From the NCBI GenBank assembly GCA_002633275.1, contig NWBO01000165.1, positions 11,015 to 75,014 on the forward strand: a stretch of 64,000 nucleotides of DNA, given 5' to 3'. Both the position numbers and the translations under genes were made by a program. The stretch is from Bacteroidales bacterium Phil12 (GTDB lineage: Bacteria > Bacteroidota > Bacteroidia > Bacteroidales > P3). Below, piece after piece: positions 2,788 through 22,740 of the stretch. The first letter of the stretch is position 1; the number at the start of each line of letters is the position of its first letter. The notes below the pieces were generated by a model. The model did no database searches. It worked only from the letters and a program-made list of their open reading frames with translations, and was not told where the DNA came from.

Positions 2788-2871
2788 GTTGACAATTTAT
2801 GACAACATTTTTGGCAAATAATTTGGAAGTCTCATTTTATTGTATTAATTTTGTTGTCAAATATAGTCAAC
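2788..2871 (+). promoter_or_regulatory. Pair of inverted 19-bp operator-like sites in front of the XRE gene
   Basis: Site 1 is GTTGACAATTTATGACAAC (2788-2806). Site 2 is GTTGTCAAATATAGTCAAC (2853-2871). The reverse complement of site 2 matches site 1 at 16/19 positions. Site 2 ends 2 nt before the ATG at 2874. Confidence 0.45.
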
Positions 2872-2873
2872 AG

Positions 2874-3185
2874 ATGCCAAATATGAAATTTACTGAAAAA
2901 ATAAAGACACTAAGAGAAGCTGGAGGATTGACGCAACGTCAACTTTCTGCCAATCTTAGTATTGATGTTGCTTTGTATAATAGATTCGAAAAAGGTGAAC
3001 GTTTGATGAAACGTGAGCTCGTATGCAAATTAGCAGAGATATATGGTCAAGAACCAGACGAACTTATTAAGTATTGGTTGGCTGATAAAGTCTACTCAAT
3101 ATTAAATGATGAAAATACTGCCGGTCAAGTAATTGAGATGGTAGCAGAGGATATACCTGAATACGTAAAACGCAGTTCTATTTGA
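2874..3185 (+). CDS. XRE-family helix-turn-helix transcriptional regulator
   Basis: MPNMKFTEKIKTLREAGGLTQRQLSANLSIDVALYNRFEKGERLMKRELVCKLAEIYG.. is a classic HTH_3 pattern. The track ORF starts at 2799, but its first 25 codons overlap operator site 1 and look non-native. ATG at 2874 (or 2883) is preferred. Confidence 0.75.
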   Translation: MPNMKFTEKIKTLREAGGLTQRQLSANLSIDVALYNRFEKGERLMKRELVCKLAEIYGQEPDELIKYWLADKVYSILNDENTAGQVIEMVAEDIPEYVKRSSI

Positions 3186-3187
3186 AT

Positions 3188-4051
3188 ATGGAGATAAAAG
3201 AATCTTTGAGATTGCTTGTAGAAAGATTTCAACAAGCAAAAGCAAATGGAGGTTTAGATTTGTCTTCGGAAGCTACAATGCGTGCCTGGATTGACGAACT
3301 CTTGGCACTCTTCGGCTGGGATGTACAAAACACACACCAGGTATTGACCGAGCACACATTAGGGAAGCAGGAACGCAAGAAGCTCCATGAAATTGGCTCA
3401 ACAAACACTTGCCCCGACTACACATTAGTTAACGGTAATGTCGCGTTAGCTTTTGTTGATGCTAAAAGTCTTGATGTTGACATAGAGAATGACAAAAGTG
3501 TTTCTTTTCAAATTCGTTCTTATGGCTGGTCTGTAGGGGCACAATATTCTATCGTGACAAACTTTAACACATTGTCAATATATGATTGTCAGTGGATGCC
3601 ACGTATAGATGATGAAGCAAATAGTGCTCGACTCTATTTCTACAACAGCACTGAATATGTAGAAAATTTCGAAATTCTACGTATGTTCTTACTTCGTGAG
3701 AATATCATTAAAAAGCAATTGGTCTTTTCACATAGTGAGCAAGAGTCTCTTGATTACAACTTTTCTAAATTTCTTGGTGAAATAAGAATAAAATTGGCAG
3801 AGTCCATAATTCGCAACAATGAGTATGACGATTTGAATTTGGTCAGTTCTTTTGTGCAAACTATAATCAATAGAATCCTTTTTATCAGAGTATGCGAATC
3901 CAATAATTTTTATGCTTATGCAAAGAATTATGTAAAGAACTTTGGTATATATCCGATGTCAAAAGAACAAAAGAATACATTATTAGGTTTACAGTCAAAA
4001 GAGGAGATAAATCGATATGTTGCTGATTTGTATCAGTTACGTATTTTTTGA
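3188..4051 (+). CDS. PD-(D/E)xK nuclease-like protein resembling the HsdR_N / type IIG (Eco57I/PglX-type) N-terminal region; no methyltransferase module follows, so it is either standalone or a truncated remnant
   Basis: SEATMRAWIDELLALFGWDV..CPDYTLV..ALAFVDAKS..QIRSYGWS..IVTNFNTLSIYD, then ..IINRILFIRVCE, as seen at the start of the helical linker of type IIG enzymes (recalled from memory). The ATG lies 2 nt after the XRE stop (the track's TTG at 3182 was rejected). Confidence 0.45.
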   Translation: MEIKESLRLLVERFQQAKANGGLDLSSEATMRAWIDELLALFGWDVQNTHQVLTEHTLGKQERKKLHEIGSTNTCPDYTLVNGNVALAFVDAKSLDVDIENDKSVSFQIRSYGWSVGAQYSIVTNFNTLSIYDCQWMPRIDDEANSARLYFYNSTEYVENFEILRMFLLRENIIKKQLVFSHSEQESLDYNFSKFLGEIRIKLAESIIRNNEYDDLNLVSSFVQTIINRILFIRVCESNNFYAYAKNYVKNFGIYPMSKEQKNTLLGLQSKEEINRYVADLYQLRIF

Positions 4052-4085
4052 TTGTAAGCATCCAAATATCAAGTATAATATAAAT

Positions 4086-4901
4086 ATGCAAACACGAGTC
4101 ATACCAGAACATATACTGGAAAATATTTGCGACATTATAGGTGAAACGTCTACTGGACTAACAGGGACAAAAATAAGCAAATATCTTAAGGCATCAAATA
4201 TTGAAGAATATACTCCCCAAGGCGTGATGCTTGCCAAGAGAAAGATTCTGTATCATTCTTTATCAGAAAAACAGAAGAATGATAAATGCTCAAACAATGT
4301 GTTGACATTTATCTCTACAGTTATGTCTCCTGCGAATTTTGTTAACAATATAAGCTTATTTGAAGAATGGAAAATAAACATTAATAAGCAATTAGCTTTT
4401 GTTGGTTACGAGCTTCAAGATGACTCGTCATATAAAGAAATCCAAAAAGCATCTACTATATTAGATGTCAAAATAAAGACAGAAAACTTAAAGAAAGAGT
4501 TAGAATCAAGAAAAGCTCATCCGCAAATTTTCAACTATTGTAAAGAAGAGTTGTTACAAAACAACTACTTCCATTCTGTTCTTGAAGCCAATAAAGGCCT
4601 ATTCAAAAGAATCCGAGAGCTTTCTACATTAGAAAAAGATGGGCAAAACCTAATAGAGCAAGTATTTAGTGATAGCAATCCAATTGTTATTATCAATAAC
4701 TATCAGTCCCAGTCAGAAAAAAACGAACATCGGGGGTTTAGAAGTCTGCTTATAGGGCTATGTGCAATGTTTCGAAATACAACAGCACACGAGCTAAAGG
4801 TTGATTGGCCAATTCAAGAGCAGGACGCACTAGAAATATTGGGTATCATTTCTTATTGTCATGGACGTCTAGATCAAGCTCAAAGAATAAGAAACGTTTA
4901 A
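4086..4901 (+). CDS. TIGR02391 (Hypoth_Ymh)-type protein with an unknown N-terminal domain
   Basis: The C-terminal half HPQIFNYCKEELLQNNYFHSVLEANKGLFKRIRE..DGQNLIEQVFS..NEHRGFRSLLIGLCAMFRNTTAHEL..QDALEILGIISYCHGRLD matches the remembered TIGR02391 signature. ATG at 4086 was chosen because the track start at 4017 overlaps the upstream gene. Confidence 0.65.
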   Translation: MQTRVIPEHILENICDIIGETSTGLTGTKISKYLKASNIEEYTPQGVMLAKRKILYHSLSEKQKNDKCSNNVLTFISTVMSPANFVNNISLFEEWKININKQLAFVGYELQDDSSYKEIQKASTILDVKIKTENLKKELESRKAHPQIFNYCKEELLQNNYFHSVLEANKGLFKRIRELSTLEKDGQNLIEQVFSDSNPIVIINNYQSQSEKNEHRGFRSLLIGLCAMFRNTTAHELKVDWPIQEQDALEILGIISYCHGRLDQAQRIRNV

Positions 4902-4954
4902 GATATAATTCTGGTAAAAATATCACGGAGGTCTGGCACATAAATTTAGAGAAT

Positions 4955-5548
4955 ATGATTTACGTTGTATCGAAAAGGAGAAAACTTGATAGCATAAAGA
5001 CACAATATCCCAATGCTATAATCTGCGATGTAACAAGTACATCGCCAAATTCTCTCGTCAAACTTAGTCCATTTTATCCTCATATGAACATCCCCATACC
5101 ATTCTCACCAGGTTACACAGGCGCATCTGTCGAAGGTATTTGGCAAGGACTTAAAGTATTTGTTGGTGAAGATATTGACATTGATTCCTTCACCAACACA
5201 TCCATGAAAAATATCAAAAGAACTTGTAAGACTCATGGCAAAGTGTTGGGACATAGAAAAGGTATACATGGAATCGAAATATTAGACTACAACTCTGCCA
5301 AGTTGAACATTTACATTCCTTCATATAAGTGGGTGATAGAAAATGTGGTAAAAGATTTAATTAATAAAATGCGTAAAGTCCACAAGACAAAAGATTTAGT
5401 TCTGTTAGATTACAACACATGTCAAAATGTTCTTGATGACTCCAAACCTCTATCTCATGCTTACCTAATAAAAGCATATATATTGGGATTATATCCATAC
5501 AATACTGATAATCAACAATTATCTTTTTTTGACAATGAGACGTTCTAA
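4955..5548 (+). CDS. 197-aa protein of unknown function, translationally coupled to the DarT-like gene. It has a weak NADAR-like motif and is a candidate antitoxin or reversing enzyme.
   Basis: First ATG of the ORF; the track start at 4805 is a TTG overlapping the previous gene. LSPFYP..(18 aa)..ASVEGIWQGLKVF resembles the NADAR/YbiA pattern (LSNF.. then ..SxEHyfQaxKF). The stop overlaps the next gene's ATG by 14 nt. Confidence 0.55.
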   Translation: MIYVVSKRRKLDSIKTQYPNAIICDVTSTSPNSLVKLSPFYPHMNIPIPFSPGYTGASVEGIWQGLKVFVGEDIDIDSFTNTSMKNIKRTCKTHGKVLGHRKGIHGIEILDYNSAKLNIYIPSYKWVIENVVKDLINKMRKVHKTKDLVLLDYNTCQNVLDDSKPLSHAYLIKAYILGLYPYNTDNQQLSFFDNETF

Positions 5549-6428
5549 CTGGTTGAATTTTGATAGAACACTAAAACAGTTTGGAGTAGATCGGTTATAT
5601 CATTTTACAGACCGAGCAAACCTACCTTCGATTATAAAAAATCGAGGTTTACTCTCATGGGCTGATTGTGATGAAAAAGGAATAAAAATAGCAGCACCAG
5701 GTGGTGATTGTTCGTCTCGCATGTATGATAAAAGGGACAATCTACATCATTATGTGCGATTAAGTTTTACAAATAAACATCCTATGATGTTTGTCGCTAT
5801 GCGTGAAGGTAGAATTAAAACCCCGGTAGTTTTAGAAATTGACACAAGTATTATCTTTGATGACACCACTCTCTTTTCTAACATGAATGCTGTTAAAAGA
5901 GAAGCGTCCATAGGTGGTTCCTTATCTGATTTTAGTAAAATTCATTTTGATGCAGTAACGCGCAGGACTCAGTTCGATTTATCTTCTGAAGAACAAAAAT
6001 ATTTTCAAGCAGAGATACTTGTGAAGAATTTTCTGCCTCTTGAATATATATCTAATATAACATCATTCAACATTCCATTGCCATCTGATATAGAGTTAAA
6101 AAATTATTATGGCAAGCACAACTATGTGTATGATAGAGAAGCCGTAGAATTGCTTTCTGACTGCTTATGGAAATTAAGCCATACAACATATTTGCAAGGT
6201 GTTAATCTCTCCGAAATGATATTTGAGATGCTTGATAATGACAACTCTCTACAAATACATATCCGTGGAGTTCTAGATTGCGAAGGTACTTTTCACCTGG
6301 TAGTATCACAAGGTTATACTTGTGGAATGTGTTCTATTGCATTAGAACATTTTATAAATTTGTTGACCCCATTAGGAATGTTTGATGATGGCATGAAACA
6401 TAAATTATCTATTTTAATCAATCAATAA
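5535..6428 (+). CDS. DarT-like (DUF4433) DNA ADP-ribosyltransferase with an uncharacterised C-terminal extension of about 110 aa
   Basis: RLYHFTDRANLPSIIKNRGLLSW (His motif), HHYVRLSFTNKHPMMF (Tyr motif), LFSNMNA, and KYFQAEILVKNFLPLEYISNI (catalytic Glu in a QAE[FIL]LV context) match remembered DarT sequences. Residues from about 185 to 297 resemble nothing I recognise. Confidence 0.7.
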   Translation: MRRSNWLNFDRTLKQFGVDRLYHFTDRANLPSIIKNRGLLSWADCDEKGIKIAAPGGDCSSRMYDKRDNLHHYVRLSFTNKHPMMFVAMREGRIKTPVVLEIDTSIIFDDTTLFSNMNAVKREASIGGSLSDFSKIHFDAVTRRTQFDLSSEEQKYFQAEILVKNFLPLEYISNITSFNIPLPSDIELKNYYGKHNYVYDREAVELLSDCLWKLSHTTYLQGVNLSEMIFEMLDNDNSLQIHIRGVLDCEGTFHLVVSQGYTCGMCSIALEHFINLLTPLGMFDDGMKHKLSILINQ

Positions 6429-6429
6429 T

Positions 6430-7413
6430 ATGGACGTATTAAGTTTATCTAAAATCAGAACGCAAGTCTTGCAGCAGGTTCTTCCTTCGGGTGAAGAACC
6501 TATAGATATTGCATTCTGCATGATTGGAGACAATCTTACAATGTCTCCAATTGAAGTTAATGGAGACTTTTCTCCATCAAAGAAGCGTGATATGCGCTTA
6601 AAAGTTCTGAACTTGTTTCTCAACAAGGAGAATCCTGATTTACGGCAAGCAGCTGAACTTGTGTATTTCTCGTTCGATCCTGTGATGAATGTTGACTACT
6701 GTTTCCAAATTTTTCCAAACAGCAGGAATACAAATCTATTTGTTTTCTCATCTACAGGCAAAAAAATTAGTGCTTTTACACCTTACAATACCACAATAGA
6801 CGAAAGAACAGAAATTGAACGTGCCATTAAAGCTTGTGCCGGAAAAGAAAGTTCATTTGCCTCCTTACGTAGTAAGTTTTCTAAACTTCTTAGTATGTCA
6901 AAGCCTGAACAGCTAAAAGTAATTCCTAGTGCTAACTCTATCTCTATAGATTTAAGCAAAGCAAATCAAAAGTCAGAAAATTCCGAAAACAAAACAAAAA
7001 CTCAAGTTGTGAAAGAATCCAATAATGGTGGAAAAACTCCATTTGAAAGATTTGCTATAGACACAATCATAAGGTTAAACAGTCCTCAATTTGATGAAAT
7101 GCGTGATAAAAAGCAGGGGCCAGTAGCTATCAGAGAGACTCTTTCTGCCTTTACCAAACAAATGATAGAACAGTTCCCTGAGTGGGATGGACTGTTTGAA
7201 TTTCTTCCACAAGATAACCACGTTTGTATTTCGTTATCAAAAGGCTTTGATGATGAAACAACGATGCAGGCAATTCCATGCCTTTGGAGAAGAAAGTCTT
7301 TTGTTGAAAATTGCATTTTGTTTGGCGTACTTAAATTCGTTTTCCTTGACAAGGTTCACAACACTTTTGATGTATTGGACTTAACAAAAATAGATCCATA
7401 TAAGTTGCCTTAA
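6430..7413 (+). CDS. 327-aa protein of unknown function; third member of the DarT-like module
   Basis: The ATG lies 1 nt after the DarT-like stop. A low-complexity Lys/Asn/Ser/Glu linker (KANQKSENSENKTKTQVVKESNNGGK) separates two unrecognised domains. The gene is followed by a terminator. Confidence 0.55.
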   Translation: MDVLSLSKIRTQVLQQVLPSGEEPIDIAFCMIGDNLTMSPIEVNGDFSPSKKRDMRLKVLNLFLNKENPDLRQAAELVYFSFDPVMNVDYCFQIFPNSRNTNLFVFSSTGKKISAFTPYNTTIDERTEIERAIKACAGKESSFASLRSKFSKLLSMSKPEQLKVIPSANSISIDLSKANQKSENSENKTKTQVVKESNNGGKTPFERFAIDTIIRLNSPQFDEMRDKKQGPVAIRETLSAFTKQMIEQFPEWDGLFEFLPQDNHVCISLSKGFDDETTMQAIPCLWRRKSFVENCILFGVLKFVFLDKVHNTFDVLDLTKIDPYKLP

Positions 7414-7434
7414 GGCAATGATTTTTCGAAGTAG

Positions 7435-7459
7435 AGGGATGCCCCAACGGAGCATCCCT
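7435..7459 (+). terminator. Stem-loop terminator at the convergent junction between the cargo operon and the mob module
   Basis: AGGGATGC (7435-7442), 9-nt loop, GCATCCCT (7452-7459), followed by TTTCATTT. It lies between the stop at 7413 (+) and the stop at 7461 (-). Confidence 0.55.
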
Positions 7460-7460
7460 T

Positions 7461-8327
7461 TCATTTCGTCTTGTCCCGAAGTCGTTTCTGTCTGACCTCT
7501 TGAACACGTTTCTTGTAGTAGTCAAGCACATAGTCAAGACCATACTCCTCAATATTCCTATCATTGGCTTGCAGGAACTCATATCCTCCAGAGTCGGCTT
7601 CAAGCGCATAGCGGAAGATCTGCACTCGCTTGTCAAGTTCGTCCGCTCTCTGCTTCTGCTCCCACCATAGGAATGTACCAAAAGCAATAGCAAGCGAGGC
7701 GATATAATAGGCAAATGTTTTCCAAAAACAAGAGATTATATCAAGCCAGATGCGATGGAGAAAATAGCCAAACTTTGACCGCTTTACATTTGATTTAGGC
7801 TTCGCTGTTGGCTCTATTGGGCTATCATCTTTGAAAGGATTGGCTGGTATCTGAGGATTGTCATCAACTGCCAGGATAATATCATCACCAACCTTGACCT
7901 CCTTATAGCCGTTGAGTTTCAGCAAAGCCTTGTGGAATTTGATGAACCAATTATTCCAAGGTTGGGTGACAGTCTCGAACAGATGCTTGTTGCCTTCGAG
8001 AAGACTCTTCGTATCAATGGGCACAGTCTGCTTACCAAGGTCAACCTTTGGTGGATTCTCTTTGAATTTTTCAAGCACAGCATTTGCGAAGGTGTCGACA
8101 TCCATCGTTTGGGTAGTGGCAGGAGTTGATACTGCCTGATCTCCCGACTGTAGTCCCAACTTGGGAATATCGGTGTTGTCGCTCTCCATGAAATAATTAC
8201 CTTCATCACTCAATGAGAACCCCAGCCGCTCAGCAATCGTTTTGAGTGCCTGCCACAGTTTATCCTGGTTTGACTTTACTTCACCAACATTTGTGATGAT
8301 GGTGTCAAGTTTATCTATCTTGGCCAT
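7461..8327 (-). CDS. Mobilization-module accessory protein of unknown function, with one TM segment
   Basis: 288-aa ORF directly downstream of the relaxase (3-nt gap). It has the hydrophobic segment FAYYIASLAIAFGTFLWW. No recognisable catalytic motif. Confidence 0.55.
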   Translation of the reverse strand: MAKIDKLDTIITNVGEVKSNQDKLWQALKTIAERLGFSLSDEGNYFMESDNTDIPKLGLQSGDQAVSTPATTQTMDVDTFANAVLEKFKENPPKVDLGKQTVPIDTKSLLEGNKHLFETVTQPWNNWFIKFHKALLKLNGYKEVKVGDDIILAVDDNPQIPANPFKDDSPIEPTAKPKSNVKRSKFGYFLHRIWLDIISCFWKTFAYYIASLAIAFGTFLWWEQKQRADELDKRVQIFRYALEADSGGYEFLQANDRNIEEYGLDYVLDYYKKRVQEVRQKRLRDKTK

Positions 8328-8330
8328 ATT

Positions 8331-9524
8331 CTATAAACTCCTTCCTTTTCTGCGTTGTCCCAACATGGAACGATTATACTTGAATCTGAACTTCCACTTG
8401 TCTTTGTCATCGTCATCCTTGTAGCCATTACTATTGCTGGAACCGCCGCCACCTCCACAGCTGCACTGCTCAATGGGCGTGGTGTAAGGTGCCAGTGCCA
8501 CTGCTATCATCAAGCCAAGAGGGATGAAGCCTGTCTGAGCATCCTTTGATGGGATGTACTCATCAGCATCATAGTCCACATAGTGATGCTCGCTGTTGGA
8601 CTGATAATCCATCAGAGAGAAGGCATTGGGCAATTTGGCGATTGCTTTCTCGACAGGATATGTGACATCAAAATCCGGGAAGGCTTTCATGATGGCAGAA
8701 TGATAACGAGTGTCATTTATCCATAGTAACGACTCTACCTTCTGGTCATAGTAGTTCTTCACATTCTCATGTGCCAACTCATGCACATCACCAAACTTCT
8801 CAGCGAGCCGGGCATAGACAAGCGAGTTGTCGAGATGCTTGCCGCTGCACGAATATTTGCCATCAGCGAACGACACACCCATCAGCTCACGGGTGACATT
8901 GTTGTAGTGGAACTTCAACTTGATGCCTTGGTTCTTCAGTTGGTCCTCAAACTGCTTCCAATCTTCCGACTTGTCGCGAGCTATGATGACCTTATCCATC
9001 ATCTCCTGACGAAGCTTGACTGTTCCTTTCAGGCATTCCTTGTTGACCGCTTCCTTGCATTTCGATTGATGTAGTTCATATTTCTGATTGAGAGCCTTGA
9101 ACACCTCAATGTTGCGTCTGCGCTCATTGGCATTACTGATGACTTTGCCCTTTCTGTTGACCCTTGAAGCCACGATATGGCAGTGAGGGTGCTCTTTATC
9201 AAAGTGTCGATAGATGACAAACTCAGTGTCGCTGTAGCCCATCTGAGCCATGTAGTCGGTGGCAACCTTATGCATGAAATCATCGGTCAGTTTCTCCTTG
9301 TCGGCTTTGTGGAAGTTCAAAGAGATATGTTTGAAAGGCTGCTTCAAGTTATGGTCTCCAAGCATGGATGCTGCCTCAAGGCAAGCCGCAATGGTCTTGT
9401 TGTCCGTAGGGAGTACTCCGCTGCTGTGCATAAGCAGTTGCGTTTTCTTGTCCTCCTCACGAATTGCCATGATGTAGTCAACGGCAAATTTACAATTATG
9501 GGGTTGAGTAAGGTTTGCTACCAT
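8331..9524 (-). CDS. Relaxase/mobilization nuclease (MobA/VirD2 superfamily)
   Basis: FKHISLNFH..YSDTEFVIYRHFDKEHPHCHIVASRVN (HxDxxxPHxH histidine triad). It sits downstream of a MobC-family gene. Confidence 0.85.
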   Translation of the reverse strand: MVANLTQPHNCKFAVDYIMAIREEDKKTQLLMHSSGVLPTDNKTIAACLEAASMLGDHNLKQPFKHISLNFHKADKEKLTDDFMHKVATDYMAQMGYSDTEFVIYRHFDKEHPHCHIVASRVNRKGKVISNANERRRNIEVFKALNQKYELHQSKCKEAVNKECLKGTVKLRQEMMDKVIIARDKSEDWKQFEDQLKNQGIKLKFHYNNVTRELMGVSFADGKYSCSGKHLDNSLVYARLAEKFGDVHELAHENVKNYYDQKVESLLWINDTRYHSAIMKAFPDFDVTYPVEKAIAKLPNAFSLMDYQSNSEHHYVDYDADEYIPSKDAQTGFIPLGLMIAVALAPYTTPIEQCSCGGGGGSSNSNGYKDDDDKDKWKFRFKYNRSMLGQRRKGRSL

Positions 9525-9581
9525 AGGCTGTGTAAATGATTAAAGTTATTACTGGCATTCATTGAATAGGATGTATAACGG

Positions 9582-9977
9582 TCAGCTGGCAACAGTCAGG
9601 TCACCGCCTCTGACCACACGCTTGACGAGCTCAGAGAGTCGGCCAACAGTATCCTCGGCCAGAGTCTTGATAGAGACAAGTCCGCCCGGGTTGGCACGCT
9701 TGGCTATCTGATTTATATTGTTGCCCATATTGGCGATGTTCCGCACCAATATCACTTGCTCATCATTGATGTGGGATTTGACATTTGCAGAGAGAGCTGC
9801 GTCATGAATGTAGTGCAGAGGACGCTTGCCTGTCTTGTCCGCTTTCATGTGGACGATGTCACTCTCAGACTGATTGAAGCTGACAGTCCATCGTTCCGCA
9901 ATCTTCTCATCTTCATCTTTGGGAGGTATACCTCCCTTTTTTCGTTCTGTGTCTATAGTTTTGGGGGTATAACTCAT
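9582..9977 (-). CDS. MobC-family relaxosome accessory protein
   Basis: ..LVRNIANMGNNINQIAKRANPGG.. is the typical MobC (NxNQiAr) motif. The gene lies immediately upstream of the relaxase. Confidence 0.75.
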   Translation of the reverse strand: MSYTPKTIDTERKKGGIPPKDEDEKIAERWTVSFNQSESDIVHMKADKTGKRPLHYIHDAALSANVKSHINDEQVILVRNIANMGNNINQIAKRANPGGLVSIKTLAEDTVGRLSELVKRVVRGGDLTVAS

Positions 9978-10153
9978 ATAGATTGTTTTAAGATTTGTAA
10001 TAGAGGGGAAAAGGTAGCGAGGCGAACGCCTGAGGGCATCCGAAGGCTTTCATGCAGGGCGAATGCCCGTTGCAGCAGAGGAGAAGTCAGACTGCCTGAA
10101 AGGAGGTCTGGCAGCTCCGAGTTTTTGCACAAAAAACACAACCTCGCTTCCTC

Positions 10154-10184
10154 AAAAACGTGAGATTTCAAACCACACGTTTTT
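10154..10184 (-). terminator. Bidirectional-looking hairpin AAAAACGTG-N13-CACGTTTTT
   Basis: Perfect 9-bp arms at 10154-10162 and 10176-10184, 28 nt downstream of the stop of the minus-strand gene 10212..10838. Confidence 0.5.
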
Positions 10185-10211
10185 ACCGCTTTTCCGAGTG
10201 TCGAAGACGCG

Positions 10212-10838
10212 TTACAGCTGTTCCTCCATGCCGTCAAACAGCGTTTGGCCAGCTTGATGGGACTGCTGTTCGTTAGGATTATAAGAGGTGTCAGAAGCCT
10301 TACCTTCGGGTGAAACAGAAGCCTGTGGAGATGGATCTGCAGTGACTTTAGGAGCCGTAGTTCCAGCAGCGCAGTCAGCTTCCGTGGAGCCAGGAGGCGT
10401 GGCTTCGGGAGTATCGCCATGAGAGTCAGGCTGTGCGTCATTCTGATGCTCTGCCTGTCTCTCGTCAGTTGGCGGTCTAGAAGAGGAAGGCTCATCAGGG
10501 AGGCAGTCAGAGACAGCTGCCATGGTGAGCACAGAGCGAAGCTTATTAGCGTCTCGTTTGATGAGCCCCAGTTGTTCCATTTCAGACATGAGTCTGGTCA
10601 TGACCTTGCGGCTCATGTTCCAACGCTCGCTAAAAGAGTTAGCTGATGCTTCGACTTCAAGAGGCTTTAATGGGACATCAATGCCTCGTTTGCGGTCGGT
10701 ACATCCAGTGACAGACATCCCATACAACAGGTCTTTGTAGATGGTCAGATGAGGTATGCCACAGGTTATCCCATACTTGGGTGTCAGGAACAGGGTGATG
10801 GCAGAGAACTGCGCTTCTGAGATAGATTTCTTGTCCAT
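10212..10838 (-). CDS. Hypothetical protein with a putative winged-helix segment and a long acidic, Pro/Ser/Thr/Ala-rich, probably disordered tail
   Basis: 208-aa ORF. ..FSERWNMSRKVMTRLMSEMEQLGLIKRD.. looks like a wHTH. The ATG lies 1 nt from the stop of the upstream gene. The overlapping ORF 9974..10495 is judged spurious. Confidence 0.5.
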   Translation of the reverse strand: MDKKSISEAQFSAITLFLTPKYGITCGIPHLTIYKDLLYGMSVTGCTDRKRGIDVPLKPLEVEASANSFSERWNMSRKVMTRLMSEMEQLGLIKRDANKLRSVLTMAAVSDCLPDEPSSSRPPTDERQAEHQNDAQPDSHGDTPEATPPGSTEADCAAGTTAPKVTADPSPQASVSPEGKASDTSYNPNEQQSHQAGQTLFDGMEEQL

Positions 10839-10839
10839 A

Positions 10840-11169
10840 TTAGTGTCTGTTAAGGTGAGTAAAATGTTTGTCTAATTGTTGTGCGATGTTGGGCGCCGCG
10901 ATGGTAGTTATTTCACGCAAGACATCACCCAGTCTATCACGAGGAATGCTCTCCATGTAGAGATACACAATAGCCATCGCAGCTCCGTAACGTAATGAAT
11001 CGTGGGCCAGTTGGCTAATAGGAGTATCATCTGATGCCTCTTTGTCAAAAGCAAAGTCGAAGAAGGTTTCCATGCGAATTTTCATAGCTTCGAGATTTTT
11101 GTTGGTCTGCGCCCATTCAATCATTGAGTTGATGGCTGCATTTTTCATGTTTACAATAGGATTGTTCAT
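10840..11169 (-). CDS. Hypothetical 109-aa protein, paralog of 11433..11738
   Basis: Shared pattern with 11433..11738: AINSMIEWAQTNKNLEAMKIRMETFF versus AVDAAVHWAKTGQGYFAMRNRVEEYF. Confidence 0.5.
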   Translation of the reverse strand: MNNPIVNMKNAAINSMIEWAQTNKNLEAMKIRMETFFDFAFDKEASDDTPISQLAHDSLRYGAAMAIVYLYMESIPRDRLGDVLREITTIAAPNIAQQLDKHFTHLNRH

Positions 11170-11432
11170 TTTTTATAGATTATAAAATATGTTAGTAATT
11201 TCTGTTGCCCTGCCCGGTGATTTACCAAGCAGCGCACAGATTGTTATCCTGAAAGTCATTGATATATAACAGTCCATCATAGACAGTGCTTGATTGGAAA
11301 GCCTCGAAACCTGCCACGACCAACTGACCATGCAATAGTCAGCGGTCATGGCGAGGTGAGGATCATCCCTTAATCAACATCTATGAAAGAAACAAGTAAC
11401 ATCTAAAAGGGGTCAATAGATAAAGGCTTCGG

Positions 11433-11738
11433 TCAGCGATGAACTTCACGCACCACATTATTGGGCAAGTCGGAGGCGATGTCCCGGATCTCACAATCGA
11501 GTTTGGAGAGTTCGGCAGGGCTCAGGGGCATGATGCACTTCGTCATCAGACTGTGCATTGCCAGCTTCCGACTGTTGTTCACAAACCAGAGACTTGGGTC
11601 TTTGTCGGGAGTAGAGGCAACAAAGTATTCTTCGACTCTGTTCCTCATGGCAAAGTAGCCTTGGCCCGTCTTCGCCCAATGTACTGCCGCATCCACTGCT
11701 GATTTCAACAGGTTTTCACGTTGAGTATCGTTATCCAT
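11433..11738 (-). CDS. Hypothetical 101-aa protein, paralog of 10840..11169
   Basis: See the paralog entry. Several antisense ORFs in the track overlap this gene and are shorter. Confidence 0.5.
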   Translation of the reverse strand: MDNDTQRENLLKSAVDAAVHWAKTGQGYFAMRNRVEEYFVASTPDKDPSLWFVNNSRKLAMHSLMTKCIMPLSPAELSKLDCEIRDIASDLPNNVVREVHR

Positions 11739-11789
11739 AAGCGGTATAAGATTTCAAGGTTATCTAATATGAGGGACAAGAGAATGGGG

Positions 11790-12089
11790 TCATCGCTGCC
11801 TGAGGATGTTGTCAATATCCGACTTGGCATAGAGTCTGCAACGTCCCATCTTGGATGGAACCAGGTAGCCGGACTTCGCCCACGATGCCAGTGTGCCAGG
11901 GCTCACATGACACAACTTTGCTGTCTCTTCTGCAGTGAGCCATTGCTCGTCCGTGTTGGCCTGCTCCTGTTTGTGGGCATCCATTTCTCTTGTCTTCTCA
12001 ATCAGCTTCTCTGCAAACTTGACAAGGTCTTCGGCGGAGACTTCAAGCTTCACTCGACCGCCTGCTTCAATTACGCTGTATAAATCCAT
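11790..12089 (-). CDS. Excisionase-like HTH (HTH_17/MerR-type) DNA-binding protein
   Basis: ..WLTAEETAKLCHVSPGTLASWAKSGYLVPSKMGRCRLYAKSDIDNIL.. The gene is located just downstream of the integrase genes. Confidence 0.65.
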   Translation of the reverse strand: MDLYSVIEAGGRVKLEVSAEDLVKFAEKLIEKTREMDAHKQEQANTDEQWLTAEETAKLCHVSPGTLASWAKSGYLVPSKMGRCRLYAKSDIDNILRQR

Positions 12090-12171
12090 TTATTCTATGA
12101 TATTATTTAAGGTCTGTGTAAATAGACTGGTTTTGTTGTCCTGAAAATGTGTTATCCTGAATGCAATCTTT

Positions 12172-13485
12172 CTATTGAATGAGTCCGATGAGATTCTTCT
12201 TCATGTCATCGTCAATGGTTCTGTAGCGGGCGAAAGCCTTACTACCGTTGACGTGACCAGACATGGAGGCAATCAGATTGGGGTCTTGCACCTGCTTGTA
12301 CAGATTGCCGATGAAGGTTCTTCGAGCCATGTGACTGCTGGCAATCTCATTGATAGGGTGTTGCTCCTCCAACTTGGTGAGATAGTTGATGACAGTCACC
12401 ATACGTGTGACTCCGGCACGGGGCAGGCACTCACGGATGGCATCATTGTACTTATTTATGGGATAGATGGGGAAGATTGCTTTTGTTGGCCTGTCCTTGA
12501 ACTTCTCATAGATGGCGATGCACTTGTCATTGAGCGGAACACGAACCACCTTTGCCAGACGATGGATGGTCTTGTGCGGAATGTATTCCAACACTCCATC
12601 AATCACGTTGGCTGGAGTAAGGCGCAACAAATCACCGAAACGACAGCCAATCATGCACTGGAAGATGAACATATCCCGGAACATTTCAAGATGTGGCTCG
12701 GCTGACAGGTCGAGCTCGACAACCTTGTTTCGCTCCTCTACATCTATGAAGTATGGTGTGCCGTAAATCTCCTGAGGAAACTCAAAACCCTTAAAAGGGT
12801 TGTTGGCCGTTATTCCTTTGTCGATGCACCAATTGACAACCGTTCTCAGTCGTGTGAACACGCTCTTTAGAGTGTTGTCGCTGCGTGGCTGAGTGGGCAT
12901 CTTACCACGCTTCTTGTAGAGTTTAGGATAGTCCTTGGCATACTGATGCTCATTGACAAGATAAATGTAGAACTCCTCCAAATCCTTGCGGGTTACTGTG
13001 TCGATATTCATAGAGTAAGCCTTTACGCCCTTGACGTGCTGCTTATACATCTGGAATCGTTCAATCTTGCCAACAGTGCCAAGGTTCACACAAGCCTGAC
13101 GCTTGTCAAAGTCCTTGCTCTCAACATATTGATGGATGAGTGCGGTAAGTTTGGTCTCCTGACAAACCTCTCCCATGAGCTTATAAGCATTGGGATGGTG
13201 GAATACGAAGATAATCTTCTTCAACCATTCGCTGTCGGCTCCTTTGTAGTACTCGGCTGCCACCTGACGAGTGAGGTCAATGATGGCATTGTTGAACTTC
13301 TGACGGTCAGCCTCTCTGACAAGTGCCACCTTGGGTCGGTAGCCTTGACGCCGTGCGTCCCAGTATTTGGGGTTGATGGACAGCTCGGTAGCTGCCTTGA
13401 GGTCACAGTTCTCGTCACGCACTCTGATATAGATGCGTCCGACCTCTCTGTCATTGGTCTTGCGGATATATGCTGTAACTTTCAT
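12172..13485 (-). CDS. Tyrosine site-specific integrase (intact)
   Basis: 437 aa. The C-terminal catalytic region reads ..GCRFGDLLRL..HMARRTFIGNLYKQVQDPNLIASMSGHVNGSKAFARYRTIDDD (R..HxxR..H..Y). Confidence 0.9.
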   Translation of the reverse strand: MKVTAYIRKTNDREVGRIYIRVRDENCDLKAATELSINPKYWDARRQGYRPKVALVREADRQKFNNAIIDLTRQVAAEYYKGADSEWLKKIIFVFHHPNAYKLMGEVCQETKLTALIHQYVESKDFDKRQACVNLGTVGKIERFQMYKQHVKGVKAYSMNIDTVTRKDLEEFYIYLVNEHQYAKDYPKLYKKRGKMPTQPRSDNTLKSVFTRLRTVVNWCIDKGITANNPFKGFEFPQEIYGTPYFIDVEERNKVVELDLSAEPHLEMFRDMFIFQCMIGCRFGDLLRLTPANVIDGVLEYIPHKTIHRLAKVVRVPLNDKCIAIYEKFKDRPTKAIFPIYPINKYNDAIRECLPRAGVTRMVTVINYLTKLEEQHPINEIASSHMARRTFIGNLYKQVQDPNLIASMSGHVNGSKAFARYRTIDDDMKKNLIGLIQ

Positions 13486-13509
13486 ATCTATCTGTATTAA
13501 TGCATTTTA

Positions 13510-14822
13510 CTATTGTATCTTATTCAAAATTTCACGCTTCAAGTCATCATCGATAGTGCGGTAGCGTTCAAAGGCTACGCTGTTGGCTGCATGACCTGTC
13601 AGCGAGGCGACAAGTGCCTGGTCTTTGACCTGCTTTAAAGGTTTCCTACAAAGGTCTTTCGGGCGGTGTGCGTGGTGGCAACCTCATAGAGAGGGTGTTG
13701 TTCCTCTTCTCTCGTCAGAGGGTTGAGAATCGTCACCATTCGGGTGATGCCAGCCATCTGTAAGCAGCATCTGATGTAGCTGCCGTAGCCATGCTTATCA
13801 AAATGAGGGAAAAGGCGTTTGCCGAGTCCTTCATATTTGGCGATTATGGCCAGAGCCTTGTCGGCAAGAAGCACACGCACAAGCTCGCTGCGATTATTCG
13901 CCAGGTTCTTGCCCGGTACATATTCAAGCCATCCGTCTTTGATATTGTCTCTTGTCAGTCGGAAGAGGTCTCCCTGACGGCATCCGACAAAGCACTGAAA
14001 TACAAAGATGTCACGCACAAGGTCTATCTGTGGAACATAGGAAAAGTCGTACTCATAGAGTTGGTCACGCTCCTCAATGCTGAGATAGTATGGTGTCCCA
14101 TATATACGCTGCTCGGTTGGTATATCTCTGAATGTCAAGTCTGTGTCATAACCATTCTTGACCGTCCAATTCAAGAAGGCCTTGAGTCTCTGACAACAAC
14201 TGCTTATAGAATTCTTTGATGATGGCACTATCGTGCGTCTGTACAGTGTGAACTGCTGATAGAACTCAGGATAGTGGCAGAAGTAGTCGTGTTCATTATA
14301 ATGGTAGTGAAGAAAGTCATCAAGCATATCACGACCAAAGTCTTTCAATGTGAGCTTGAACTCCTCGTTGCCTTCCATCTGCTGCCGCCAAGCCTCATAT
14401 CGGCGAAGGCGGCGACCGATTGCGATGATGCCTGTGGCATTCTCATGCACTGGTTTCTCCTTGGCAATGTAGTCTTCAAATATATCAAAGAACTCCGTCA
14501 ATTTTTTGGACCTGCGCCCTCGCTTCTTGGGTGAGTTATCGGGATGGACGAAGTTCTTAACCTCATCTGTGAACCATAAGAGGTCGCATCCGTTCACATA
14601 CTCATCTTTGATATGTGCTATCACATCGATGAGCTTCTTGTTTGTACTCTCTCTTACTTCTTTGGGAACCTCTGGCACATCTTTGTAACCTGGTATCGTT
14701 GGGTCGAAGTACATGGGCTCAACTCTTATACCGGTGGAAACCTTCCAGTCGATTTCTCTGCCATCACGAAGTCTGATATAGACGAGTGAATTGGACTTTC
14801 TAATTGTTGCTATAACTTTCAT
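13510..14822 (-). pseudogene. Second tyrosine integrase, paralog of 12172..13485, disrupted by a 1-nt deletion
   Basis: The ORF stops at ..HTARKTFVGNL* (13635). The -1 frame continues KQVKDQALVASLTGHAANSVAFERYRTIDDDLKREILNKIQ* to 13510, colinear with GNLYKQVQD..GH..RYRTIDDD of the intact paralog. Only 2 nt (TA) remain where a Tyr codon is expected at 13636-13637. Confidence 0.8.
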
Positions 14823-15030
14823 AGAAAAATTGAATTTTGATTTAATTTTGGTACAAAGTTAATTTGGTTCCCACAAATATTCCCAAAGAAATCATATTTA
14901 CTTCATCCTTGTTAGATTTAAATAACACTTACGATTTTTATCCAAATACCCTAAATTAGAGCAATTTACAAGCATTGTTAGTATGATTTAACACAGTTAG
15001 CAATAGTCTGATTTAGGTATTAAAAACGGC

Positions 15031-15040
15031 TAAAATAATC
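15031..15040. repeat. Right terminal inverted repeat of the nested element (TAAAATAATC), followed by or overlapping the duplicated target CTCCTCG at 15040-15046
   Basis: Exact reverse complement of 1841-1850. The adjacent 6-bp TCCTCG is identical at both junctions. Confidence 0.8.
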
Positions 15041-15201
15041 TCCTCGCTCACTTGGGTCAATGCCGCTGTACCGGCCGAATAGTCTCCTGCGGTGGTCTGT
15101 GCCATCATTGCGGTTACACCACACACCATCATCAGGCAGGTCATCTGCGCTTTCTTGGAGGTCGCAATCTTCTTTGCGAATCGTTTTACTTTTTCAAACA
15201 T
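15040..15201 (-). pseudogene. traE: traE 5' fragment (start codon, signal/TM region, first 54 codons)
   Basis: MFEKVKRFAKKIATSKKAQMTCLMMVCGVTAMMAQTTAGDYSAGTAALTQVSEE. The frame then reads through into the element end (IILAVFNT*, track ORF 15013..15201). Confidence 0.85.
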
Positions 15202-15252
15202 GCTTGTTTCGTTTTAATTGGACTTTAATTATTGTTTTACACTCGTGATTTT

Positions 15253-15585
15253 CTAAATTCGGTAGCCGAAGAATGCCGGGAATACGATGGATGCCCCGAT
15301 AATGAAGAGGCAGGATCCTACCAGCGTGAAGATATGCTTGGTGATTCCGTCTTCGCCCGTGTTCATCTTGATGTATATCTGGAATGCGGCTATGACCGCA
15401 AAACCTCCTGCAACCGCATAAATGATATACTGGACGTACATCATCATCGTTACGACAAAGTCGTGCATCGAAGCCAATGCGTCTGCGCCCCAGGAGTAAT
15501 TCACGCCGCCGCTCTTTGCGAAGACCGCACAAGGCTGCAGCATGAAGATTGGAGTTATTGCTTTTTTGATGTTCCATCCTGTCAT
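15253..15585 (-). CDS. DUF4134-type (TraE-like, VirB2-like) small membrane protein
   Basis: ..YVQYIIYAVAGGFAVIAAFQIYIKMNTGEDGITKHIFTLVGSCLFIIGASIVFPAFFG aligns with reconstituted TraE ..CYAIAGVVAVVGAISVYIAMNNEEQDVKKKIMMVVGACIFLIVAAQALPLFFG. Confidence 0.65.
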   Translation of the reverse strand: MTGWNIKKAITPIFMLQPCAVFAKSGGVNYSWGADALASMHDFVVTMMMYVQYIIYAVAGGFAVIAAFQIYIKMNTGEDGITKHIFTLVGSCLFIIGASIVFPAFFGYRI

Positions 15586-16028
15586 AGTTCGTCTATTGCC
15601 GGTTTTATGGTTACACCTCCGTTGGATGGGGAGTTGCCAAGACCTTTTCCCATCATCAATTTGTATAGCTCTGCGGAATTGTAAGGGTTGAAGAAAGTGG
15701 CATGGGTCTCTTCCATTTTTTCATCAATCCTGTGGTTGATTGCTTCAACCACATCCTGCTTGTGCTTTTCGCTCTCCGGTTCTTTATCGTCCGACACAGA
15801 CTGCGTTTCATCAACGTAGTGTGTCTCATACTCGTTGTCCCCGACATTGAACCCCTTGTCGTTCTCCACCACGCTGACACTTTCTTCAGCATCAAATTCG
15901 CTCACGTCGAACTCTTCTTCCTCGGATTTCTTCTTTTCACCGTTTTCGTGAAGGTCTTTGGTTATTATTACCGCATAATATACGATGTATGCTACGGTCA
16001 GCACAAGGACGAAAATGAAGTATGCTTT
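15582..16028 (-). CDS. Small N-terminally anchored, highly acidic protein; first gene of the tra block
   Basis: The preferred start gives MKAYFIFVLVLTVAYIVYYAVII... (the track ORF extends to 16076). Its stop overlaps the next ATG (ATGA). Confidence 0.45.
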   Translation of the reverse strand, partial: KAYFIFVLVLTVAYIVYYAVIITKDLHENGEKKKSEEEEFDVSEFDAEESVSVVENDKGFNVGDNEYETHYVDETQSVSDDKEPESEKHKQDVVEAINHRIDEKMEETHATFFNPYNSAELYKLMMGKGLGNSPSNGGVTIKPAIDEL

Positions 16029-16286
16029 CATATTTTTATAGTCTGAATTTAGAATATGATTAAAATATGAATGCAAAGGAAATACAATATTTTCATACTC
16101 TGAAAAATATCTGAGAAAACAGGCAGAATCTTAAATATTTTTTGGTAAAAACCTAAAATCATACTCAAATATCATACTTTGAATGAATTTTCAGACGTTT
16201 TACGAGTGCATATAAACACGAAAAGCCCTCCTTGTTAGGGAGAGCCTTCTATGGGTTGTGGTATGCTATCAGAGGGAATACAAAGA

Positions 16287-17175
16287 CTAACGCCTTTTTC
16301 CCCTCAGATAGTCATTCAGGTCTTTGTAGTTGTAGTAGTTTTTAAAGTGGTCGATTACCTTTATCCTGTAAAGTCCGGCAATGGTCTCGACGGTCTTTTG
16401 CCCGGCGAGGTCGTTATCCAGATAACAATGGATGAAAATATATTGCTCCAGCTCCAGAAGACACTTTTTCAAGTTGCTTACGGAGTTCATCACAAGAAAA
16501 TCGGTCGGGATGTCAACACATACGTGGTAATCTCCCTTTTTATGCAACATTAGATAAGAGAGGAAATCCACAAACCCCTCAAAAACGCAGACGTGTCTTT
16601 GGATGACATCCCTGTTGTATCTGATGACGGATATGTCCTTGCCTTTGATACATCCTTTTATAATAAGGATTGCGGACTTCGTAACCGCCCTTGATGTTCT
16701 CAAAGGCTATGGCAAAATAGTGCCGTTTGCGCAGTTCATAGTGTATCTCCTTACAATAGGTTCTGCCGACTTCTTCACTTATGCCCCTTGAACGCAGATA
16801 AGAGAGCAGGGCGTAGTGGTTCAAATCCACCACTTCCACATTCTCCATCTCATCTTCGACAGGGCAGGGTCGGACGGTTCGGCTCTGCAACTGTTGTCCC
16901 GGCACACCAATGGCATTCTCGCTGATACGCAGCAGTACCGTACTTACATTGCTTGTTTTATAGAGGTATTTCCCAAGTTCTATGATGTCCCCACCGGCAG
17001 AAAGTCCAAAGTCGTACCATTCGTTGAGATTGTCATTGACTTTGAAAGACGGGGTGCGTTCCTCCCTTAGCGGCGAGAGATACCAATACTGATAGCCCCT
17101 GACATTGACAGGGTGGTGGCCGGCTATACGCAGATATTCCACAAGCCGTATTTGTTTTGCTTCGTTGATGTTCAT
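16287..17175 (-). pseudogene. Toprim-domain DNA primase-like protein with a +1 frameshift
   Basis: ORFs 16579..17175 and 16287..16703 overlap in different frames. Removing one base from the T4 run at 16656-16659 (A4 on the coding strand) gives ..GGYEVRNPYYKGCIKGKDISVIRYN..VFEGFVDFLS..YLDNDLAG (toprim DxD). Confidence 0.7.
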
Positions 17176-17304
17176 TTTAGTATGGTTTACTTATATATAC
17201 CCACAAACTAAACCATACCGGTTAGAGGTGGAATGAAGGATTATAGGAATAGGTACGGCCGTTTTTTTTAATGGCATGATGTTCCAACAGAAATTTACAC
17301 AAGT

Positions 17305-18740: not shown

Positions 18741-19132
18741 ATTTTTTCTCCTGTTATAGTGGCTGGTTGTCCGACTGTTTGTACTTGATTTCTCATTGCC
18801 CATTCGCAAAGTTCTTTTCGATTGAAATACATCAATTTGCCGTTGGGCTTGTAATGCGGTATTTGTTTGAGTGAAGTGAGCTTGTAGATATAGCTTTCGG
18901 ACAAACCGAGATAAGCGGAGGCTTCAGCGGTAGTCAGCACCTCTTTGACAGCCCAAATACGTTCTTTCAACTGTATTATGTAATTCTCGATGGTTTGGAT
19001 TTTATCCACTTCGTTAATCTTTTGTTCCAACGTCTGGAGCCGTTCAAAGGGTTTCTCCGATGCCATCATGGAAATCATGTTCTCCATCTTGGAGAGCATC
19101 TTGTTTTCATTTGCCGTTCTTCGATGTCTCAT
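18737..19132 (-). CDS. Xis-like HTH_17 DNA-binding protein, paralog of the previous entry
   Basis: ..TAEASAYLGLSESYIYKLTSLKQIPHYKPNGKLMYFNRKEL.. Confidence 0.6.
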   Translation of the reverse strand: MRHRRTANENKMLSKMENMISMMASEKPFERLQTLEQKINEVDKIQTIENYIIQLKERIWAVKEVLTTAEASAYLGLSESYIYKLTSLKQIPHYKPNGKLMYFNRKELCEWAMRNQVQTVGQPATITGEKI

Positions 19133-22685: not shown

Positions 22686-22740
22686 AGCCTGTTCCTATTT
22701 TAATGAGAAATGTGATTTATTGTCTCCGGGGGACGGAATT

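Follow-up and report, generated by a model that had tools for sequence, protein, structure and literature searches.

A mosaic cargo block in a Bacteroidales mobile element: a type IIG restriction–modification relic, a solitary Ymh gene and a candidate tripartite DarT cassette

We have analysed a 64,000-nucleotide stretch of DNA from Bacteroidales bacterium Phil12 (contig NWBO01000165.1 of assembly GCA_002633275.1, positions 11,015 to 75,014; the window), and in particular a block of six genes, g1 to g6, at window positions 2788–7459. We consider it fairly probable that this block is the cargo slot of a Bacteroidota conjugative or mobilizable element, filled by three independent modules, namely the remnant of a type IIG restriction–modification (RM) system, a lone Ymh/HEPN gene and a DarT trio. 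Within it, g4, g5 and g6 are best read, on homology and recurrence, as a self-contained, horizontally exchanged tripartite DarT toxin–antitoxin (TA)/defence cassette. The initial annotation, made from the nucleotide letters, had taken all six genes for one compact defence/addiction unit; its picture of AT-rich defence-island cargo on a mobile backbone stands, but the single six-gene unit does not, since blastn resolves three segments. The features discussed below are as follows (window coordinates).

2788–2807, no strand: operator-like site 1, imperfect palindrome GTTGACAATTTATGACAACA; left edge of homology to related RM loci (blastn)
2852–2871, no strand: operator-like site 2, TGTTGTCAAATATAGTCAAC; 3–12 nt 5' of the g1 start codons
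2883–3185, plus strand: g1, XRE/HTH_3 regulator (alternative ATG at 2874; the ATG at 2883 is conserved)
3188–4051, plus strand: g2, remnant of a type IIG RM locus shortened by an in-frame deletion
4086–4901, plus strand: g3, solitary Ymh/TIGR02391 protein, PD-Lambda-3_B-like
4914–7466, plus strand: DarT cassette g4-g5-g6 with its terminator, 2.55 kb, the edges being blastn homology boundaries
4955–5548, plus strand: g4, DUF6939 protein, proposed NADAR-related antitoxin
5535–6428, plus strand: g5, DarT-family ADP-ribosyltransferase (ART), with a 14-nt overlap with g4
6430–7413, plus strand: g6, two-domain accessory protein, proposed DarT partner or regulator
7436–7459, no strand: GC-rich hairpin, AGGGATGC-N8-GCATCCCT, with a T-rich run after it; within the cassette boundary

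The mosaic structure emerges from a blastn comparison of the window with related metagenomic and genomic loci (designated here by L numbers). Segment 1 (2788–3903 and 3905–4053) matches one RM locus at 76–81% nucleotide identity, across a 3,956-bp deletion. Segment 2 (4054–4913), which contains g3, is without counterpart in those relatives, and L036 carries an unrelated 151-aa open reading frame (ORF) at the position corresponding to g3. Segment 3 matches at 90–91% nucleotide identity in L034–L037 (4914/4917–7466) and over 4914–7413 in L038; in L034, L035 and L037 there is no match to the window on either side of the cassette. Synonymous divergence (dS), computed against L036, is saturated for g2 (3.6) and only 0.23–0.34 for g4–g6, and the modules have therefore had different histories. 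Considering in addition that g1–g3 are absent from trio-bearing loci L015, L017–20, L034, L035, L037 and L039, we argue against the six genes having been assembled as one unit; where the initial annotation looked to co-occurrence, it is g4-g5-g6 that recur together, and the block as a whole splits into separable modules.

The trio is found in L015, L017–20 and L033–39 with the same gene sizes and a g5–g6 gap of 1 nt throughout, and the −14-nt g4–g5 overlap recurs in L017–20 and L033–38. Exact or near homologues of g6 are always preceded by a 297-aa DarT gene and a DUF6939 gene, so that what had been described as a DarT module does contain DarT but comprises three genes rather than one. All three genes are under purifying selection (dN/dS 0.09–0.24). 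The contexts of the trio number at least six and otherwise have nothing in common.

L015: chromosomal site
L017–20: element with umuDC-like genes and an insertion sequence (IS)
L034, L035: IS-flanked
L037: flanks without homology to the window
L039: AbiE/AbiJ island
L033, L036, L038: beside an intact RM system

We suggest that the DarT1-like g5 product would ADP-ribosylate DNA bases, using NAD+, and that g4, a divergent NADAR relative translationally coupled to g5, would remove the modification and/or bind DarT in uninfected cells. The g6 product would bind DarT or its 112-aa C-terminal extension and so set toxin release, which could be triggered by phage infection or by loss of the element. 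It is conceivable, although we think it unlikely, that the trio serves mainly as an addiction module, stabilizing the mobile element by post-segregational killing, and is not anti-phage. DarTG is a bona fide TA system (PMC11543638), and the trio is carried in integrative and conjugative element (ICE) or conjugative transposon (CTn), IS-flanked and plasmid contexts; yet its neighbours are often defence genes (AbiE, AbiJ, RM and retron-like reverse transcriptase/HRDC), DarTG1, DarTG2 and DarHTG protect against phages (PMC11543638, PMC13069673), and orphan DUF6939 genes in viral contigs (see below) suggest a counter-defence arms race. Addiction and anti-phage roles are, moreover, not mutually exclusive.

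Residues 1–185 of g5 form a DarT domain (Pfam DarT, PF14487, 6e-34, 118 bits against a cutoff of 22.5; PADLOC DarT, 3e-19), and the ART core is intact, the catalytic His and Glu being present and H23 (YHFT) and Q158-A159-E160 (QAE) invariant in 58 DUF6939-linked DarTs. The remaining 112 residues, a C-terminal extension, are conserved within the class and have no match to a hidden Markov model (HMM). The closest sequence in the Protein Data Bank (PDB) is E. coli C7 DarT1 (8BAQ), and no match to DarT2 structures was found at E up to 1. The residue aligned with E160 of g5 is Ala in the 8BAQ chain, where the catalytic Glu has presumably been substituted, and the g5 enzyme is probably active. Public gene calls give this DarT as a 214-aa protein (5784–6428) starting at an internal ATG, as against 5535–6428 here; with the start at 5784 the DarT domain loses its first ~83 residues, HFT among them, and automated annotations of the toxin are therefore truncated. 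The g5 sequence translated from 5535 had no exact match when looked up.

For the antitoxin the evidence is of two kinds, association and remote homology. The g4 product belongs to DUF6939 (Pfam, E 3e-70), and among the 80 DUF6939 loci returned by a metagenome profile scan a DarT gene comes directly after DUF6939 in ~70, essentially all those with enough DNA. g4 matches NADAR-DarT1 (PF22397) weakly (0.022; 14.6 bits against a cutoff of 27), as do 15 of 31 DUF6939 homologues, and reciprocally the genuine NADAR-DarT1 proteins of plasmid DarT1 operons weakly match DUF6939. An hhalign comparison of DUF6939 with three genuine DarT1-NADARs gave a probability of 93.8% and an E value of 1.6e-7, over the N-terminal 84 columns only, the segment LSPFYP...SVEGIWQGLKVF being aligned with LSAFNL...SVE-A-QASKVFE. 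The aligned motif, LSxF...S-x-E-x-x-x-Q-x-x-K, is also present in YbiA (FSNF...SEHYFQAQKF, checked against 2B3W). In the P. nicotianae NADAR, E43 and K50 lie seven residues apart (PMC11543638); in our own motif alignment they fall within the hhalign segment, and E60 and K67 of g4 have the same spacing. DUF6939 has ~50 invariant residues, many of them polar, and the AlphaFold2 (AF2) model of g4 is confident (pLDDT 92.8). DUF6939 is thus probably the DarT antitoxin and a candidate hydrolase for ADP-ribosylated DNA.

DUF6939 also occurs apart from DarT. In nine of ten viral contigs (L123–L132, IMG/VR, 14–201 kb), some of them of jumbo-phage or giant-virus size, it is an orphan, with no DarT within 4 kb, and a Foldseek search of the g4 model against BFVD returned uncharacterized giant-virus proteins only (TM 0.53–0.69). 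By analogy with phage orphan NADARs, which neutralize DarTG1 (PMC11257639), the viral orphan genes could be anti-DarT counter-defence. On a Prevotella plasmid (L119:2951–6546) an orphan DUF6939 gene lies near ADP-ribosylglycohydrolase, NUDIX and DUF1810 genes. On a plasmid of Bartonella sp. HY761 (L116:1–4549) DUF6939 is found two genes 3' of an RHS-repeat toxin, a position like that of an immunity gene; the C-terminus of that toxin matches DUF7587 weakly, and no DarT domain was detected there. A literature search for DUF6939 found nothing relevant.

The third protein, g6 (327 aa), matches no family in the Pfam, NCBIfam and PADLOC HMM libraries and belongs to a tiny family, with 33 matches in a word-indexed search and 42, mostly fragments, in an exhaustive profile search. 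Its AF2 model (pLDDT 78) comprises an N domain (~1–135), a disordered linker (~138–200) and a C domain (~204–327), and its dN/dS is 0.13–0.24. The exhaustive search linked both domains to DarT in a second setting: the 337-aa protein P0265 is a fusion of a g6-N-like domain to the N-terminus of a DarT domain, and its operon encodes a g6-C homologue of 201 aa (E 3e-23) on the upstream side of it and a macrodomain protein of 223 aa on the downstream side. Operons of this macro type, in the order g6-C homologue, g6-N–DarT fusion and Macro, were found in three loci (L120:1–2287, L121:98–2393 and L122). Both g6 domains thus appear to travel with DarT whatever the type of antitoxin, and for that reason we favour a physical, regulatory partnership over an antidote role. 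The g6 C domain is found as well in 274-aa proteins of operons encoding Hsp70 and kinase/AAA proteins. One such operon (L021–L023:1008–8459) encodes proteins of 309 aa, 830 aa (Hsp70-like), 594 aa (kinase+AAA; IetA/PD-T4-6/mad6-like by PADLOC), 156 aa, 274 aa (the g6 C domain) and 178 aa. It lies beside a CCG/LUD/NusG cluster, which in L009–L011 is adjoined by a DUF6939-DarT-PP2C operon, and this suggests that the site adjacent to the cluster is a defence hotspot.

It might be argued that g6, alone or with the C-terminal extension of DarT, is the true antitoxin, DUF6939 serving for example in the salvage or processing of NAD or ADP-ribose. The lack of a PDB match to the DUF6939 fold and its partial similarity to NADAR would agree with this, as would the fusion or adjacency of g6 domains to DarT elsewhere and the presence of DUF6939 without DarT in Kitasatospora, in Prevotella and in viral contigs. 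We nevertheless hold it improbable, given that in the macro-type operon the g6 domains stand alongside a canonical Macro antitoxin and so do not substitute for one, that in DUF6939-DarT operons the third gene is mostly a PP2C-like phosphatase gene while DUF6939 is the constant partner, and that orphan viral copies of DUF6939 fit an antidote role.

Several observations weigh against assigning these roles to g4, g5 and g6 and against the independence of the modules. Foldseek of the g4 model against the PDB returned no NADAR, macro or ARH structure (best E 2, TM <0.2), the DUF6939 profile had no match among PDB sequences, the alignment to NADAR covers DUF6939 in its N-terminal half only, and hhalign against YbiA and 8BAU alone was not significant, though the motif falls in the same register. 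Because a confident model has no PDB match and only the N-terminal half aligns, we describe DUF6939 as NADAR-related and not as a NADAR. For g5, residues R52 and D54 of DarT1, which are implicated in guanine chemistry, align to K66 and D68, which are not invariant in the clade, and guanine would therefore be no more than a candidate target base. The g6 model had no significant Foldseek match in the PDB, the protein shows no recognizable fold or motif, and its proposed regulatory role follows from gene and domain association. In the same way the toxicity of g5, its neutralization by g4 (with the hydrolase activity) and anti-phage activity of the cassette are predicted from homology and association. 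As to independence, no more than 41 nt of the cassette lie 5' of g4, so that expression of the trio may depend on read-through from g1–g3 and a single transcript is possible; and g2, discussed below, retains a PD...DxK motif and an open frame, with which some residual activity would be compatible.

Known DarT systems comprise DarTG1 (with a NADAR antitoxin), DarTG2 (macro) and the tripartite DarHTG (ARH-like DarG3 and a helicase) (PMC11543638, PMC13069673), of which DarTG1 and DarTG2 are anti-phage abortive-infection TA systems (PMC11543638, PMC13069673). To DarTG1, in which DarT1 is paired with a NADAR antitoxin (Schuller et al., 2023, PMC11543638), the trio is alike in that DarT1 is the nearest solved relative of g5, in that g4 is remotely NADAR-like over a motif with a catalytic-type Glu and Lys, and in that g4 and g5 are translationally coupled, as in a TA pair. 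It is unlike DarTG1 in that g4 falls in a separate Pfam family, below the PF22397 threshold and with no Foldseek match to solved NADARs; in that the order is DUF6939 then DarT with a conserved third gene, DarTG1 being a two-gene system of toxin then antitoxin; and in the 112-aa extension of g5 and its unconserved guanine-chemistry residues. DarTG1 is characterized by an ADP-ribosylation of ssDNA that is specific for guanine and is undone by its antitoxin. DarTG2 differs in that none of the six window proteins matches Macro and g5 matches no DarT2 structure. With DarHTG, composed of DarT, ARH-like DarG3 and a UvrD-like helicase (Liu et al., 2026, PMC13069673), the trio shares a three-component make-up in which an accessory protein is added to a toxin–antitoxin pair, but HMM scans of the six window proteins gave no helicase, ARH or Macro match, and the g6 model has no PDB match. 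By its sequences, then, the trio would work most like DarTG1, yet it departs from that system in the order and number of its genes and in the antitoxin-family threshold.

The main class of DUF6939-DarT operons (L009:6001–8918, L012:6001–8875 and most of L042–L112) has another architecture. DarT is fused to a TerY-like von Willebrand A (vWA) domain in 56 of 67 complete DarT genes (PADLOC TerY, 4e-52), and of 62 genes that come next, overlapping by 4 nt, 52 are PP2C-like; L011 and L012 also have Ser/Thr kinase genes on the upstream side. These operons share the TerY-like fusion and the PP2C-like gene with the TerY-P triad (Gao et al., 2020, PADLOC model), and the class has the appearance of a DarT effector coupled to a TerY-P-type phospho-switch; from this we take the third operon position to hold a regulatory module. 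The window cassette, unlike TerY-P, has neither TerY nor PP2C, and no homology between these and g6 could be detected. Which kind of third gene is present varies together with the kind of extension on DarT, and the third position thus holds interchangeable modules. An hhalign comparison of the variable parts (the g6 N domain, the PP2C-like third gene, the extensions of g5 and of the long DarTs, and parts of L006) found no homology among them, and on that basis we rejected a derivation of g6 from PP2C by divergence or from TerY by splitting. A literature search for DarT with TerY found nothing relevant. A plasmid of Parabacteroides distasonis (L118:4739–8861) shows a further architecture, with DarT (419 aa), DUF6939 (222 aa) and two unknowns of 498 aa and 198 aa in this order.

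Both DUF6939, the likely antidote, and the g6 helper are previously undescribed in DarT systems. Going further, we propose tentatively, as something short of an even chance, that the cassette represents an undescribed tripartite class of DarT system, in which DUF6939 would be a NADAR-derived DNA de-ADP-ribosylase that has diverged to a fold not yet represented among solved structures, g6 and TerY-vWA with PP2C would be interchangeable infection-sensing modules, and viral DUF6939 would act in counter-defence.

Upstream of the cassette, g1 and g2 are derived from an RM locus. The domain calls of the initial annotation (HTH_3/HTH_31, HSDR_N, the last weak, Hypoth_Ymh/TIGR02391 and DarT) were all recovered, and its nuclease-like gene does encode a nuclease domain; g2 is, however, not a stand-alone nuclease but the deletion relic of a type IIG enzyme. 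Codons 1–238 correspond to the N-terminal PD-(D/E)xK nuclease and linker of a 1002-aa enzyme (83–84% identity), with the PD...DAK motif present as in type IIG nucleases, a weak HSDR_N match and a PADLOC REase_MTase_IIG match over positions 4–256 of 1011 (E 4e-37). Codons 238–287 are the last ~49 codons of a downstream 608-aa methyltransferase, joined in frame, and residues 238–284 share 91% identity with the C-terminal end of P0232 (N6_Mtase+Eco57I). Window positions 2788–3903 match L036 227–1350 (76%) and positions 3905–4053 match L036 5307–5455 (81%), so that stretches contiguous in the window are 3,956 bp apart in L036, with a clean junction at ~3902–3905. The locus is intact in L033, L036 and L038, where a 113-aa HTH gene is followed by the 1002-aa protein (L036:635–3643; HSDR_N, Eco57I, N6_Mtase, MmeI_Mtase and TaqI_C) and the 608-aa protein (Eco57I and N6_Mtase), and the gamma-class N6-adenine methyltransferase and target-recognition domain of type IIG enzymes, present in the intact L036 homologue, are absent from g2. 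In more distant relatives the enzyme is split into a 397–437-aa nuclease subunit and two methylase genes that follow it; L024 and L028 are such split-gene relatives with a C protein, the 99-aa HTH gene of L028 lying 4 nt upstream.

The small HTH gene 2 nt 5' of g2 (HTH_31, 1e-10; HTH_3, 2e-9; PADLOC Control_protein, 6e-5, a weak match) has palindromic sites of its own, an arrangement typical of RM systems regulated by a controller (C) protein and shared by L028 and L036, in which a homologous HTH gene of 99–113 aa lies 3–4 nt 5' of the nuclease or RM gene. Both operator sites are near-invariant islands in an alignment with L033, L036 and L038 whose overall identity is only 76%, and L028, a more distant locus, has a related palindrome, TTGACA-N5-TGTCAA, ahead of its homologous HTH gene. 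Because of these conserved islands and the L028 palindrome, g1 is probably the C protein of the former RM system, acting at predicted operators. An in-frame deletion of 3,956 bp took out the methyltransferase and specificity parts of the 1002-aa enzyme and most of the 608-aa methylase, leaving g1 and the two palindromic operators intact. In comparison with type IIG/Eco57I-like RM systems with a C protein, g1, the operators and g2 codons 1–238 are collinear with the intact HTH/1002-aa IIG/608-aa methylase loci, but the window locus is without methyltransferase, specificity domain and second methylase, the nuclease and a 49-aa methylase tail being what remains. The 287-aa g2, a nuclease domain devoid of recognition and modification parts, is most likely non-functional as a restriction system, and its architecture is found only in 100%-identical copies. 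A metagenomic protein of 445 aa, P0159, has 250 N-terminal residues like those of g2 and 49 C-terminal residues like the same methylase tail (53% identity); it may have arisen by a separate internal deletion in a related RM locus, though the contig is short.

The layout of the block is as the initial annotation gave it. The six plus-strand ORFs are separated by exactly 2, 34, 53, −14 and 1 nt, the operator-like pair upstream has 20-nt arms that are 85% complementary, and the closing hairpin with its T-rich tail was verified at 7436–7459 by reading the sequence. A simple terminator scan did not list this hairpin and gave a weaker one (7404–7419) instead, and a simple sigma-70 promoter scan is uninformative for Bacteroidota. 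The hairpin is likely a terminator common to the convergent gene at 7461–8327. Co-oriented and tightly spaced genes with one operator pair and one strong terminator could be taken to mean that all six form one integrated, XRE-repressed defence or addiction operon whose nuclease, HEPN and DarT effectors act jointly. The RM-then-trio adjacency is indeed also seen in L033, L036 and L038, and with only 41 nt of upstream DNA brought by the cassette, co-transcription from a g1 promoter is plausible. We nonetheless regard one integrated system as very improbable, considering that the three segments differ in divergence and boundaries, that the trio is found without g1–g3 in at least five other contexts, that g3 is missing from otherwise syntenic relatives, that g2 is a deletion product, and that co-transcription would not make six genes one system. 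The gene order matches no named system, as had been noted. Scans with the PADLOC HMMs, part of the defence-system check that the initial annotation had suggested, confirm the defence content but recover no complete system: the IIG enzyme is truncated, PD-Lambda-3 is represented by its B and not its A component, and DarT lacks a recognized DarG.

The remaining module is g3 (Hypoth_Ymh, 8e-39; TIGR02391, 8e-33). It belongs to the Ymh/TIGR02391 clade, which we take to be part of the HEPN superfamily, an assignment reportedly made by Anantharaman et al. in 2013, and it has an R-x4-H motif (FRNTTAHE) in its C-terminal Hypoth_Ymh domain, within the R-x4-6-H pattern of HEPN proteins; it may be an active stand-alone HEPN effector. 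Genes of the Ymh/TIGR02391 type are habitually embedded in RM loci, and the setting of the closest g3 homologue fits this. That homologue (64% identity) comes from a Paludibacteraceae metagenome-assembled genome (L030), where the Ymh gene is surrounded by a decayed type I RM locus (L030:5337–8237), with an HsdS fragment on one side and an HsdR that has suffered an internal deletion on the other. This HsdR is a 196-aa protein made of the HsdR N-terminus and the last ~26 positions of a T1RH-like C-terminal domain; the HsdS fragment and a Fic gene lie upstream, and this is a second internally deleted RM gene beside a Ymh gene. The genome scan with g3 gave just two loci, too few for statistics on Ymh neighbourhoods.

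A comparison with PD-lambda-3, reportedly described by Vassallo et al. in 2022, is invited by the match of g3 to its B subunit (PD-Lambda-3_B, PDLC03987; 3e-65, residues 33–291 on model positions 11–266 of 270), which is nearly full length. PD-lambda-3 is a two-gene abortive-infection system consisting of a PD-(D/E)xK nuclease and a Ymh-like B protein (PMC10952713, PMC13190303); unlike it, the window locus has no A subunit (no match to the PD-Lambda-3_A model in any of the six proteins), and g3 stands in the context of an RM relic. That g2 and g3 now form a PD-lambda-3-like abortive-infection pair, as the same combination of nuclease and Ymh-like B protein (PMC10952713), the strength of the B-subunit match, the spacing of 34 nt and the PD...DAK motif and open frame kept in g2 would allow, is the least probable reading of all, given that g2 has no PD-Lambda-3_A match even at E up to 10, arose by a recent deletion known only in 100%-identical copies, and that the nearest g3 homologue lies in another decayed RM locus without such a partner.

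The host element can be outlined from the surroundings of the block. Conjugation genes (TraG and DUF4133) lie to the left and relaxase, MobC and integrase genes to the right, and the block is therefore ICE/CTn cargo. Its AT-richness had been judged by eye and is borne out by measurement, GC being 0.347 (2788–7459) against 0.443 (7467–23000) and 0.462 (1–2000) in the backbone, and so is its resemblance to the chromosome (0.355 at 36–64 kb). Public assemblies hold a 100%-identical copy of the block. The right end of the element lies between ~21.5 and 22.9 kb (window 21500–22900), adjoining mnmE, and beyond it (22912–36552) is chromosome with a MurC-like ligase, a 2450-aa SprA (type IX secretion system, T9SS) and Por_Secre_tail proteins. 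MnmE, SprA and the T9SS-sorted proteins mark the host as a member of the Bacteroidota. The only tRNA in the window is a tRNA-Met at 58006–58080, and the element is therefore not inserted at a tRNA within the window.

Finally, the RM relic and the Ymh gene are ordinary in themselves, but they carry a lesson for annotation, in that a locus of this kind comes out of PADLOC-type HMM scans as three incomplete systems and that an in-frame RM relic can masquerade in annotation as a stand-alone nuclease gene. DarT systems belong to a small group of defences that work through chemical modification of DNA bases, and to our knowledge the trigger by which their toxins are released on infection is still unknown. 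If our proposal is true, a new antidote lineage and swappable third components (the g6 module, whose domains also occur with a macrodomain antitoxin, and the TerY/PP2C phospho-switch) would constitute natural experiments on the trigger step of DarT. Moreover, DUF6939 has thousands of members, including copies in contigs of giant viruses and jumbo phages, and a function that can be tested would bring annotation to a large family.

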